Below are positions 18,255 through 44,898 of a DNA stretch of 64,000 nt, one piece after another (within the stretch, counting starts at the first letter, position 1; each line of letters begins with the position of its first letter). The stretch covers positions 1,312,001-1,376,000 of the forward strand of contig CAVUZH010000003.1 in assembly GCA_963745835.1 (NCBI GenBank). The letters run 5' to 3'. The translations under genes and the position numbers were made by a program. The stretch comes from an uncultured delta proteobacterium. GTDB lineage: Bacteria; Desulfobacterota; Binatia; UBA9968. Under the pieces are notes generated by a model, which ran no database searches, was not told the DNA's origin, and saw nothing but the letters and a program-made list of their open reading frames with translations.

Positions 18255-18341
18255 GCGAGGATGGCGGAATCGGCAGACGCGCTAGTTTGAGGGGCTAGTG
18301 CCCGAAAGGGCGTAGGGGTTCAACTCCCCTTCCTCGCACCA
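18255..18341 (+). tRNA. tRNA-Leu (GAG)
   Basis: Acceptor GCGAGGA/TCCTCGC, anticodon loop TTGAGGG, long variable arm, GTTCAAC T-loop, CCA end. Confidence 0.96.
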
Positions 18342-41676: not shown

Positions 41677-41800
41677 TTAGTATAATAAGTCCGGCCCTAT
41701 TTGCGGGAGAGTGGTCTCGTCCCTGTTCGTTGCAAGTTCAATGGTCACGCGAGCCGCCTCCGACAAGAGAACTAGGCTGAAGATTCCTGCCACGCTCAGA

Positions 41801-41830
41801 CGTTGAACCTTGAACGGTTGAACGTTGAAC
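41801..41830. repeat. TTGAAC short tandem repeat array
   Basis: CGTTGAACCTTGAACGGTTGAACGTTGAAC. Confidence 0.7.
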
Positions 41831-41835
41831 AATTG

Positions 41836-42663
41836 TTATCTGCCTTTCCAACGCGGCGGCCGTTTTTCGACAAAGGCTTTTGGACCTTCCTTAGCGTCGT
41901 CCGTTTGCAACACCATGCTCTGAAGATCCGACTCATAGCGCAGCCCCTGCTCCAACGTCATTTCGCAGCCTTTATAAATAGCTTCTTTGATATAGCGCAG
42001 CGCCAAGGGCGCGCCTTTTAGAAACGATTGCGCCATTTTTTCACCTGCGGGAACTAATTGATCATAAGATACGAGCTGGTTCACCAATCCGATGCGATAA
42101 CATTCCGCGGCATCGTAAAGTTCGCCGGACAGACAGATTTCCAAAGCTTTTGGAATGCCGACAAGACGCGGCAGCCGCTGCGTTCCACCCGAACCCGCCA
42201 GAAAACCAAGCCGCACTTCACTCAGTCCAAGTCGCGCCCCTTCCGCCGCTATACGAATGTCACACGCCAAACTCATCAAAAGCCCGGTGCCGACGGTATA
42301 ACCATGAAGCAGCGCGATCGTAATCTTATTCATTGCTGCAATCACTGGCGCTGGAGTGCCAGGAATCGCCGAGTTCTTCGACTGGCGCTGCACGAGCGGT
42401 GATTCCGTAGGTTCGATTTCCGTCGCATTCTGCCGCGCACGATCCTTGATATCTCCGCCTACAGAAAACGCGCGCTCGCCATTTGCCTTGAATATAACAA
42501 CCTGAACGTTTGGGTCTTCTTCCGCCGCGCGGCAATAGTCAACGATCGACCTCACCATCTCCCGGTTCACCGCATTCAACGACTCTGGACGATTCAGCGT
42601 GATCCAGGCGGTTTGATTTCTAACTTCGTACAAAACCTTTTCTTCTGCCACCATATTCTCCAT
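41836..42663 (-). CDS. Enoyl-CoA hydratase/isomerase family protein
   Basis: LNRPESLNA, GGTQRLPRLVG, AFVEKRPPRWKGR; true start may be 42654 or 42651. Confidence 0.92.
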   Translation of the reverse strand: MENMVAEEKVLYEVRNQTAWITLNRPESLNAVNREMVRSIVDYCRAAEEDPNVQVVIFKANGERAFSVGGDIKDRARQNATEIEPTESPLVQRQSKNSAIPGTPAPVIAAMNKITIALLHGYTVGTGLLMSLACDIRIAAEGARLGLSEVRLGFLAGSGGTQRLPRLVGIPKALEICLSGELYDAAECYRIGLVNQLVSYDQLVPAGEKMAQSFLKGAPLALRYIKEAIYKGCEMTLEQGLRYESDLQSMVLQTDDAKEGPKAFVEKRPPRWKGR

Positions 42664-42701
42664 TTTGGATTTTAGATCTTGGATCTAGATTATCGGAGAG
42701 G

Positions 42702-42917
42702 GAGATAAGCTATTGCTGCTCTACCTGTTCGTCCAATGTTCATAAGTCTGTTCACGCTTGCGTATGAAAGCTGGGAGCGAAGGGGCAAGCCTGGAGGCCA
42801 CAGACGTAGAACCGTGCAGATACTGCCAGGCCCGAACTATTGGAATCAGCACCCTGGGGCTGGCGAGGGCGGCCTTGGAGTCAGAGACCCATCGGCTGCG
42901 GCCGGAAGGCTTATCTC
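42702..42917 (+). mobile_element. Candidate non-autonomous IS110-derived element (non-coding end only)
   Basis: IR GAGATAAGC/GCTTATCTC; internal motifs resemble IS110 non-coding ends as I recall them; no transposase. Confidence 0.45.
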
Positions 42918-42970
42918 TTCGCGTCACTTTCGGAAAGATCCCCAATCCAAAATCGCAAATCCAAAATTCT

Positions 42971-43765
42971 TCATTTCCCCTTCCAAACCGGCGCTCGTTT
43001 TTCGGCGAACGCCCGGGGACCTTCCTTGGCATCTTCCGTTATACCGACCAATGCCGAGAGATCAGCTTCCAACCGCAATCCTTCCTCCAGCGGCAGCTCC
43101 ACCCCCTTCTTGATCGCTTCCTTAATGAACGCAACGGACATCGGCGCGCCTTTAAGTATCCGTTCGGCGAGATCCTCTGTAGTTTTAAGCACGTCGGCAG
43201 AAGGCACCGCGTTATTCACCAATCCCAACGACTTCGCTTCAAGACCGCTTACCGTATCGCCGGTAAGACACATTTCCATGGCTTTGGTGACGCCTACCGC
43301 CCGAGTCAGGCGTTGCGTGCCGCCGGCGCCCGGAATGATACCGCGCCGAACTTCCGTGAGTCCCAGCTTGGCATCCTCAGCCGCGACCCGCAGATCGCAC
43401 GCCAGGGCAAACTCCAATCCGCCGCCGACACAGTAACCGCGAATCGCCGCGATAGTTGGCTTGGTGATCGCCGCTACAGCGCGTGCCTGGGTGTAAATTT
43501 TATTGGTCAATTTCTGCTGGCGCCGTTCGATGGGCGAAAATGATGTTTCCGCCCGCTCCTTGAGATCCATCCCTGCTGAAAACGCCTTTTCGCCGGCGCC
43601 TGTGAATATCGCCACACGAATCCCGCTATCCTCCTCCACTTGCTGGCAAACATCGACCAACTCCCGTGTCATCTGTCGATTCATTGCATTGAGTGAATCA
43701 GGCCGGTTGAAGGTTATGAAGGCAATCTGATCGCGGGTTTGGTAAAGTATGGTTTGGAAATCCAT
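42971..43765 (-). CDS. Enoyl-CoA hydratase (both catalytic Glu present)
   Basis: FSAGMDL, GGGLEFALACD, LGLTEV, GAGGTQRL. Confidence 0.93.
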   Translation of the reverse strand: MDFQTILYQTRDQIAFITFNRPDSLNAMNRQMTRELVDVCQQVEEDSGIRVAIFTGAGEKAFSAGMDLKERAETSFSPIERRQQKLTNKIYTQARAVAAITKPTIAAIRGYCVGGGLEFALACDLRVAAEDAKLGLTEVRRGIIPGAGGTQRLTRAVGVTKAMEMCLTGDTVSGLEAKSLGLVNNAVPSADVLKTTEDLAERILKGAPMSVAFIKEAIKKGVELPLEEGLRLEADLSALVGITEDAKEGPRAFAEKRAPVWKGK

Positions 43766-43780
43766 TGAGTGCTACCTCTT

Positions 43781-44848
43781 CTAACGCGGTTTTGTTTTCC
43801 TCTCCTGTTGAAGCTTCTGTAGAAACGACAAATCGAGAAGCTCTTCGGCTTTTAACCCCATGCCGGCAAGGTTCTTATCGTTGGCGATGACATTCTCGAT
43901 TGCCTTGGCGGTAATAAACGGCAGCCCCGGTGTCACCTGGCTATAGGCGCGGCGCGTTTCCTCAAGCTCTTCAATCGCCTTGGATCTGAAATATTGGCCA
44001 AGGTACTCGAGAACCTTTTCTTTATTATTCTCGTCGCGATAAAAATCCATGCCGTCAGCTAACCCGCGCATAAAATTCATCACCGTCTCCGGTTCGGCGC
44101 GAATAAACGACGTCGTCGTCACCACGCCGGAAATGGTGTATTCGAAATCGACCTTGGCGAGATCGACGAAAATGGGAAGACCGGCCTTGCGCGCAAGCAA
44201 TGTGAGCGGCGGTTGCACGATGGTCCCTTGAACATGCCCACCGTTCAATGCGGCCCATCTCTCTCCGGCCGCGCCGACGGCGACGATCGTCACGTCTTTC
44301 TCCGGGTTCAAACCAACCTGGCGCAGCGCATAACGCGCAACGAAATCCGAGCTCGAGCCGATCTGGCTTACAGCGATCCGTTTCCCTTTTAAGTCCGCCG
44401 GAGTTTTAATCGTCGAATTGCCCACCAGGATGTAATCGAGCTTGTTGCCGACAGCGCCGACGTATCGAAGCTCCTTTGCCCCCTGCGCCCAGGCATTAAC
44501 AATCGCCGATGCGCCTTGCATTTCGATCAACACGTCCCGGGCAAGCAGCGCCTGCACGCCCTGAACCCCGCCCCGGATGAAAATCGGTCGAACACGGATG
44601 CCGTGTTTTTCAAATGATCCAGAGCGGTGCGCCACCCAGAAATAGCTCGTCGAACCGCCAAATGGATAGCCGATGTTGAGCTCGCGAAAGGATTTGGATT
44701 GAGCAAGAAGCAGGGAAGGCGCTAACGAAATTAATAGGATAAGAACTAAAATAACGGCTAGTGTGTAAACCGAAGAATATAATTTTGAATTTTGGATTTT
44801 GGATTTTATATTATCGGATAAGAAAGTCTCTGGGCTCCTTAACTTCAT
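43781..44848 (-). CDS. ABC substrate-binding protein, SsuA/NMT1-like
   Basis: FWVAHRSGSFEKHG, DLKGKRIAVSQIGS; GGAGG RBS. Confidence 0.87.
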   Translation of the reverse strand: MKLRSPETFLSDNIKSKIQNSKLYSSVYTLAVILVLILLISLAPSLLLAQSKSFRELNIGYPFGGSTSYFWVAHRSGSFEKHGIRVRPIFIRGGVQGVQALLARDVLIEMQGASAIVNAWAQGAKELRYVGAVGNKLDYILVGNSTIKTPADLKGKRIAVSQIGSSSDFVARYALRQVGLNPEKDVTIVAVGAAGERWAALNGGHVQGTIVQPPLTLLARKAGLPIFVDLAKVDFEYTISGVVTTTSFIRAEPETVMNFMRGLADGMDFYRDENNKEKVLEYLGQYFRSKAIEELEETRRAYSQVTPGLPFITAKAIENVIANDKNLAGMGLKAEELLDLSFLQKLQQERKTKPR

Positions 44849-44898
44849 TCTATCCTCCGATCTTCAATCTAAAATCCAAAATCGAGAATCCAAAATCG

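Follow-up and report, generated by a model that had tools for sequence, protein, structure and literature searches.

The window analyzed here, a stretch of 64,000 nt from an uncultured representative of the Binatia (positions 1,312,001 to 1,376,000 of contig CAVUZH010000003.1, assembly GCA_963745835.1), contains two minus-strand enoyl-CoA hydratase genes separated by a spacer of 307 nt (42664-42970), with a gene for an NMT1-type binding protein farther upstream of the pair. A first-pass annotation of this DNA had described the spacer as inverted heptamer arrays enclosing an inverted repeat and a non-coding interior, and had interpreted the interior as an orphan bridge RNA of an IS110-family insertion sequence (IS). 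According to our analysis, most of the described layout is real and the bridge-RNA interpretation is wrong. The interior is very probably a decayed copy of a MITE (miniature inverted-repeat transposable element), a member of an undescribed, lineage-restricted family of non-coding elements of 210-240 bp.

The spacer and the element within it

The annotated frame of the locus was confirmed. Both flanking genes matched ECH_1 (Table 1), an inverted-repeat search recovered the outer arrays as arms of 23 nt (42662-42684 and 42945-42967) that are 87% complementary, and TRF reported period-7 arrays at 42665-42686 and 42944-42967. Six perfect 9-mer inverted-repeat seeds were present in the spacer, compared with a mean of 0.17 in 2000 mononucleotide shuffles. 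The perfect inverted repeat on which the annotation had drawn also exists and is 9 nt long (GAGATAAGC at 42702-42710, GCTTATCTC at 42909-42917). However, one such repeat arises in 12% of the shuffles, one of its arms lies in a helix of the element and the other in the host spacer, and in the ortholog of the related genome G004 it is degraded, with arms that no longer match; we treat it as fortuitous.

The interior shows no coding signal, and alignments of its copies contain 1- and 2-nt indels, in agreement with the annotated absence of a convincing open reading frame (ORF). A small protein starting at a conserved plus-strand ATGAAA was ruled out by the same indels; its ORF runs antisense into the hydratase gene. 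The promoter and terminator scan returned no sites of either kind. The best Rfam match over 42000-43600 had an E-value of only 4.7, and at gathering scores the whole window yielded a tRNA only (tRNA-Leu (GAG) at 18255-18341, the sole Rfam or ARAGORN gene in the window).

Table 1. Features of the hydratase-hydratase spacer and its surroundings (window positions)
Feature	Position	Strand	Remarks
MITE copy of type A, full extent	42733-42943	- (orientation of the covariance model)	211 nt; edges from type-A alignments in other genomes
Conserved core, match of covariance model R1	42765-42930	-	174.8 bits, E 6e-40; plus strand 26.9 bits
Closing helix P1-P3, 5' arm	42893-42922	-	pairs with 42777-42806
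Closing helix P1-P3, 3' arm	42777-42806	-	pairs with 42893-42922
Asymmetric centre, conserved in sequence (AUGGG..., GGGCCUG..., ACCUG.ACG)	42807-42892	-	from copy alignments; inner fold uncertain
Left terminus, minus-strand GGGGATCTTTCCG	42931-42943	-	degenerate counterpart of CCCGGATTCCTCCGAAAG, which follows NTAN in other genomes
Right subterminal extension and terminus, minus-strand TTTCATacgCAAGcGTGAAcAGACTTATGAACATTGG	42733-42764	-	conserved among type-A copies
Enoyl-CoA hydratase gene, downstream neighbour	41836-42663	-	275 aa; ECH_1, E 5e-58
Enoyl-CoA hydratase gene, upstream neighbour	42971-43765	-	264 aa; ECH_1, E 7e-72
Heptamer array, TTTTGGA/TCTTGGA units	42662-42691		partner is 42944-42967; reaches into the downstream hydratase gene's start codon
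Heptamer array, AATCCAA units	42944-42967		directly past the upstream hydratase gene's stop codon; genome holds about 40 look-alikes
Spacer of the heptamer palindrome	42692-42732		unique in the genome (BLAST); holds ATTATCGGA, also present in the array pair 44781-44897

A dispersed family with several subfamilies

The genome to which the window belongs (G000; 7.28 Mb, 25 contigs, 97% complete) contains further copies of the interior. BLAST of the spacer against it returned about 40 short matches to the heptamer arrays and a second copy of the interior, 79% identical, at C22:122895-123049. When the interior was compared with 61 relatives, 23 genomes were matched, some of them with 11-18 matches, and some copies stood in tandem about 200 nt apart. 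The covariance model R1, which was built on the minus-strand orientation, had 34 matches in G000, corresponding to 32 distinct copies (two matches were the reverse strand of copies already counted). Within the same family of bacteria, R1 matched 68 of 90 genomes; at most 31 candidates per genome were scored, and the per-genome counts are thus lower bounds in which some reverse-strand duplicates may be included. In a class-wide sample of 151 genomes, matches were found in the own family (six of eight genomes, plus G000) and in one sister family (one of two), and in none of the 140 genomes of 17 other families. These tallies include G012, G018 and G086, which are flagged as unpublished; no conclusion rests on these alone (G012 contributed rows L022 and L037 of alignment A2 and row L059 of alignment A4). 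The family is absent from the literature that we found on repeats and non-coding RNA of the lineage and on bacterial TTAA/IS5 MITEs.

The 32 copies in G000 were split into three subfamilies. Subfamily A includes the window copy and the copy on C22, and its ends are weak, being decayed in the window copy. Subfamily B has 17 copies of 210-215 bp with the ends CCCTAATCCGACA ... TGTCGGATTAGGG, and subfamily C has 13 copies of about 240 bp with the ends CCCGAATTCCGCAG ... CTGCGGAATCCGGG. A further subfamily, D, with the ends (C)TAATACAAACGT, occurs in other genera. Terminal inverted repeats are thus seen in types B and C of G000 and in type D. Subfamilies A, B and D align across the whole core and have their helices in common, and the window copy is likewise homologous to B, C and D along its full core.

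The extent given for the window copy (Table 1) also leans on analogy with the type-B copies of 210-215 bp. In other genomes the left end of type A is CCCGGATTCCTCCGAAAG, placed after TAA, CTAG or CTAT and resembling the terminal repeat of type C; the right end reads ...CTTTCATGAAAATTAGGG, then TTAA in one copy, and one copy ends with ...GAAAATTAGGG directly before TTAA. The terminal repeats of the window copy are weak (GGGGATCTTTCCGAAAG compared with the reverse complement of ACTTATGAACATTGG). The motif CCAAT stands at both of its edges (42733-42737 and 42942-42946) and in the ortholog, and from the sequence it could be either a target duplication or a part of the terminus.

Several copies have an unusual arrangement. 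At C22:122639-123059 of G000 (L002/L077), a type-A and a type-C copy adjoin in opposite orientation, about 70 nt apart. In G021, four near-identical type-A copies (L187-L190) share a 3' extra segment of about 60 nt, which resembles an inverted type-C arm. Both arrangements hint at composite elements that may be mobilized together as one unit. In G020, pairs of copies stand in tandem about 200 nt apart on contigs C480, C335, C780 and C677. The G020 assembly is fragmented, and many copies are found no more than a few hundred bases from the end of a contig; therefore, the repeat probably breaks short-read assemblies.

Structure of the core

In overall build, the elements are long imperfect palindromes with an asymmetric centre. 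The comparative fold consists of one long closing helix of three helical segments around a centre of 86 nt, and not of the two tandem stem-loops proposed earlier. Among 21 copies aligned with MAFFT, compensatory changes were found in 12 of 16 P1/P2 pairs, and over the 47 modelled pairs 84.5% of cells pair, compared with 33-48% when the partners are slid. The P3 segment differs between subfamilies, with CGCAGCCG/CGUCUGCG changed to CGUGGGCA/UGCCCACG. The second of the two annotated stems (CTGCCAGGCC/GGCCGGAAG) pairs in 83% of cells; however, none of its six pairs is compensatory, and all 500 shuffles reach the same value. The inner helices of the centre are weakly supported and were predicted on one strand alone.

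Target duplications, empty sites and the window locus

Identical 4-bp direct repeats flank 9 of 14 intact type-B copies (TTAA in five, TTAG/CTAA in three and TTAT in one), and most flanks of the remaining intact copies match at three of the four positions; a stricter automatic scan retained six type-B copies with 4-bp direct repeats. Both type-B loci that were tested have clean empty sites in congeners. The site of C3:498391-498603 is empty in G004 and G006, where the flanks lie 12-13 nt apart around a single TTAA. At C24:315169-315381, G000 reads ...gc TTAA, then the element (CCC...GGG), then TTAA agc..., whereas G004 has ...gc TTAA agc...; in G005 the flanks of this locus abut over one CTAA, with 2 nt shared. 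Therefore, type B inserted after G000 had split from relatives that are about 95% identical to it, duplicating 4 bp of the target.

Together with these observations, the family has most of the features by which MITEs are recognized: non-coding elements below 500 bp, terminal inverted repeats (B, C and D), 4-bp duplications (B), dispersed copies and insertion polymorphism. What the annotation had expected of relatives was accordingly found in part, as copies throughout the family and empty sites of type B, and not as a clean empty allele of the window locus itself. The window copy is common to G000 and G004, in which it is 94% identical, whereas the corresponding spacer between the hydratase genes of G005, G007, G003 and G002 lacks it. 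Its mobility is inferred from its relatives, because its own duplication, termini and empty allele are not clean.

The annotation had also proposed that the element was inserted into a repeat palindrome, and this claim holds: the copy sits between inverted heptamer arrays of a kind that recurs at 44781-44897, and without 42733-42943 the layout of the spacer matches that of the recurring pair (an array, ATTATCGGA, about 45 nt and an inverted array).

Several points weigh against the assignment to a MITE family. The spacer of G005, G007, G003 and G002 is wholly replaced by GTTCAAN arrays, which leaves no clean empty-site allele. The window copy has weak terminal repeats and no clean target duplication. 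No autonomous IS or other element with the MITE ends was found in G000, even though this genome is 97% complete in 25 contigs and type B moved after the split from G004. Finally, the centre and the helices are kept across subfamilies that have diverged at the level of the bacterial family, which goes beyond a purely parasitic need; selection on RNA or DNA structure may stand behind this conservation.

Search for a partner transposase

The searches for a partner transposase covered G000. A search for end pairs revealed no genuine terminal-repeat pairs 0.3-6 kb apart; its one candidate, of 2.5 kb, encloses a 249-aa ORF that is not a transposase and was rejected. A scan tied to target duplications returned the MITEs alone, nhmmer profiles of half-elements detected no unpartnered half besides the known copies, and in a self-BLAST inventory of repeats no repeat family of at least 600 bp carried the MITE ends. 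A loose scan for the end motifs gave mostly noise. DDE_Tnp_1 was found at two places, and no inverted-repeat seed with MITE end motifs lies within 1.5 kb of either of them; from the sequence, neither gene looks like the partner.

Two multicopy IS are present in the genome. One is of 1519 bp with an ORF of 452-459 aa (C3:1165165-1166683, C13:760041-761558 and C14:245446-246965), and the other is of 1350 bp with an ORF of 413 aa (C6:12116-13466, C14:8232-9581 and C18:494195-495545). Both were rejected as partners, having terminal inverted repeats of their own, unrelated to the MITE ends, and duplications of 9-12 bp. At C13:674360-674390 (L199), upstream of a duplicated HSP20 gene, the junction ...CAGGG TTAA CCCAAATCCGCAG... 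resembles two decayed elements whose ends abut. It was considered as an end of an autonomous element (GGGTTAA followed by CCCAAATCCGCAG) and discarded as a solo remnant.

Strand, gene context and transcription

Of 60 elements, 49 are flanked on each side by a gene call no more than 400 nt away. Sixteen of these lie in the same sense as co-directional genes, 20 are antisense to them, 11 lie between convergent genes and two between divergent genes; there is no orientation preference relative to genes, and promoter regions are avoided. The genes neighbouring different copies are unrelated to each other.

The pairs of the closing helix were also used for a wobble test on 27 outer-helix pairs in 45 copies, with an alignment blind to structure. 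Watson-Crick pairs occupy 996 of 1211 cells, and A.C combinations outnumber G.U on the modelled strand (84 vs. 35 cells). Any A.C occurs in 18 pairs and any G.U in 19, and these similar counts mean that no strand is favoured. An early argument for a minus-strand RNA from a single G.U was unsupported by the counts over all outer-helix pairs. RNAalifold energies are similar on both strands (-82.4 and -84.0).

In two of four runs, which come from two studies, RNA-library contigs cover parts of the window element: 42760-42909 in X18 and 42867-42993 in X17, with none in runs X15 and X16. The X17 contig extends past the 5' edge of the element toward the upstream gene and has no discrete start. This fits read-through; the contigs carry no information on strand, ends or level, and may stem from DNA carry-over. 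An X17 contig that skips from 42684 to 42939 with 18 other letters in between was considered as the joint of an empty site and rejected. One of its sides is just 23 nt long, its left loose end reads, when reverse-complemented, as another gene start, and it derives from another heptamer-array locus.

Alternative explanations

The conservation of the core raises the question of whether the MITE is merely the carrier of a functional structured RNA, either a cis element of mRNA or a trans-acting small RNA family, in which case selection on RNA would account for the conserved centre. The covariation of the closing helix, the switch of P3 between subfamilies with pairing kept, the centre retained across subfamilies and the RNA-library contigs would all suit such an RNA. 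Yet covariation between two arms is equally expected of paired transposon ends, the orientation to co-directional genes is unbiased, neither the excess of A.C over G.U nor the folding energies favour a strand, and transcription is represented by contigs alone, of which that of X17 crosses the edge of the element. In addition, no promoter-like or terminator-like site and no Rfam match was detected, and we regard a functional RNA as improbable. We see a similarly slim chance that the body of the MITE is a conserved structural module of RNA or DNA, serving the host or an unlinked enzyme, as the compensatory change seen in at least four subfamilies and about 20 genera might indicate; conceivable examples are a portable mRNA-processing or stability element active in both orientations, and an RNA that acts as guide or scaffold for a recombinase from another locus. 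An omega-RNA was discarded as an explanation, because TnpB (PF07282) has no place in G000. The covarying arms are read here as paired transposon ends or as a hairpin required for transposition.

Two other kinds of mobile element have structural resemblances to this family. A doublet of repetitive extragenic palindromic (REP) sequences forming a hairpin (REPIN) is moved by a REP-associated tyrosine transposase (RAYT, Y1), and G000 has 12 Y1_Tnp places, several of them in ORFs of 300-350 aa; moreover, the elements are long hairpin-forming intergenic repeats, and a Y1-like ORF fragment lies just downstream of one type-B copy (L085, 1698-1937). However, the target is duplicated over 4 bp and the clean empty sites hold a single TTAA; IS200/IS605-type Y1 enzymes are not known to insert in this manner. 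The fragment was the single Y1-like ORF that phmmer found among 99 element loci, and the 2-kb flanks of 13 Y1 places, searched for short end motifs with one mismatch, showed no consistent pattern, the motifs being too short to be specific. A REPIN-like nature is thus very unlikely. As an observation on the Y1 genes themselves, six of 300-350 aa are present in G000, and the fragment (C5:54897-55136) is an ORF of 80 aa that resembles the long Y1 (IS200-like) transposases of this genome; the left end of the type-B copy upstream of it is decayed.

The original proposal, an orphan bridge or seek RNA of an IS110/IS1111 element that retained its guide RNA but no recombinase and which IS110 recombinases from other loci would use or move in trans, has its attractions. 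About 170 nt of structured, non-coding sequence lie in a mobile element and inside a repeat palindrome, and IS110 genes are at hand, with nine DEDD-domain (PF01548) places in G000 and eight in three of four other copy-rich genomes. PMC11208160 describes repeats as frequent targets of IS110 elements. In spite of this, the proposed likeness to IS110 non-coding ends was unsupported in every test. In five genomes, no IS110-matched contig is among the contigs listed with BLAST element copies, and G022 has no IS110 matches yet at least 31 element matches. For phmmer, query ORFs could be obtained from 20 of the 21 transposase places in G000. Eight of these queries were IS110, and at an E-value of 1e-3 they matched none of the 1467 ORFs in the 99 element loci (301 kb). 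Up to 1.5 kb from these elements there is thus no IS110 gene, the copies beside DEDD_Tnp_IS110/Transposase_20 genes that the annotation anticipated were not among them, and the proposal falls by the first refuting condition that the annotation itself had named. Conversely, R1 matched the ends of none of the eight IS110 loci of G000. With filters off, the sole real match on these loci scored 34 bits and stood 1.65 kb from the gene, past an ORF of 435 aa, and an identical copy of that IS on C14 has no R1 match. BLAST of the spacer matched no IS110 end in G000, and Rfam gave nothing relevant on the eight loci.

The behaviour of the family also differs from that of IS110. A fixed guide loop is expected to give one fixed target of about 14 nt, and IS110 elements, as generally portrayed, have neither terminal inverted repeats nor a multi-base target duplication. 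In the present family, near-identical type-B cores occupy sites that share TTAA or CTAA alone, the opposite of a fixed guide-defined target; the sister subfamilies carry inverted repeats at their termini and duplicate 4 bp of the target, which together with such sites is the behaviour of DDE-type cut-and-paste transposition and not of RNA-guided site-specific recombination; and a single long helix around a central region makes up the fold, not an architecture of two internal loops. Because of the missing linkage to IS110, the terminal repeats and duplications and the different fold, the bridge-RNA reading is unsupported, and we give it almost no credence. What remains of the proposal is a mini-element that has no transposase and needs mobilization in trans.

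Heptamer arrays

The arrays that enclose the element form a class of their own. Tandem arrays of three to five heptamers of the AATCCAA or GTTCAAN type are situated at the borders of genes and often form inverted pairs with 60-250 nt between them. In the window they were seen at 41800-41830, 42662-42691, 42944-42967, 44781-44807 and 44866-44897, and they are also present in the spacers L040-L043. One pair flanks the ribosome-binding site and the start of the NMT1-like gene at 44848. The same hydratase-hydratase spacer has GTTCAAN arrays in the congeners and AATCCAA arrays in G000, where about 40 look-alikes include clusters such as C19:391-418 kb and C3:1406-1428 kb. A REP-like element, a terminator and a protein-binding array are candidate natures.

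Proposed mechanism and implications

For the MITE family, we propose that a DDE transposase supplied in trans would recognize the ends of the element, cut with a 4-bp stagger at Py-T-A-Pu/TTAA sites and paste the element into intergenic DNA. Our guess, made from the target site alone, is that the partner may be an IS5-like enzyme; the Py-T-A-Pu insertion sites given for IS5 in PMC5493358 include ttaa, ctaa, TTAG and CTAG. The covarying arms could provide the same binding sites at both ends or form a hairpin. The window copy would have entered the heptamer-array palindrome between the hydratase genes before the split of G000 and G004 and is probably read through within the operon transcript. 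The palindrome would fold in the transcript in either orientation, and we speculate that it could affect mRNA processing.

The analysis removes a tempting false lead, as an apparent orphan bridge RNA of about 170 nt in nested inverted repeats turned out to fit a MITE. An uncultured lineage of soil bacteria carries the family in abundance, with some copies at the contig edges of fragmented assemblies, and the family has moved recently enough to be used as a strain marker; the model R1 lets annotators mask it. Furthermore, strong covariation of two arms with no signal of strand or orientation calls for caution in searches for structured RNA.

Comparison with known systems

MITEs, as characterized in PMC10969869, are shorter than 500 bp and have terminal inverted repeats of about 4-30 bp, flanking direct repeats that fade with age and transcripts that form stable stem-loops. 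The closest systems are the prokaryotic hairpin MITEs, such as Correia/NEMIS of Neisseria, ERIC/IRU and YPAL of enterobacteria and QMITE of Coxiella. The present family is like them in its size of 210-240 bp, in lacking an ORF, in its terminal inverted repeats and its short target duplication, and in its tens of intergenic copies per genome, which sit within operons and between genes that converge. Direct repeats that fade in old copies and a very stable stem-loop predicted for the transcript are further similarities (PMC10969869). In contrast to those MITEs, the family belongs to another, uncultured lineage, is unrelated in sequence and comprises at least four subfamilies (A-D), in which ends and cores have diverged together while the helices were retained.

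With the IS5 group, the family shares 4-bp duplications at Py-T-A-Pu sites, here TTAA, CTAA/TTAG and one TTAT (compare the target sites quoted in PMC5493358); however, there is no transposase gene in the element, and the likeness lies in the target site alone. The IS110 bridge RNA and IS1111 seekRNA are similar as structured non-coding segments of about 170 nt in a mobile element that is tied to genomic repeats, but the present element has no adjoining DEDD/Transposase_20 recombinase, no fixed long target and no match in sequence or model to the IS110 ends of G000, folds differently, and belongs to a family with terminal inverted repeats and target duplications. Like the REP/REPIN-RAYT systems, the family consists of intergenic palindromic repeats in tens of copies in a genome with Y1 genes; it differs from them in its target duplications, in empty sites with a single TTAA, in the lack of consistent Y1 adjacency, in a length about twice that usual for REPINs and in its conserved asymmetric centre.

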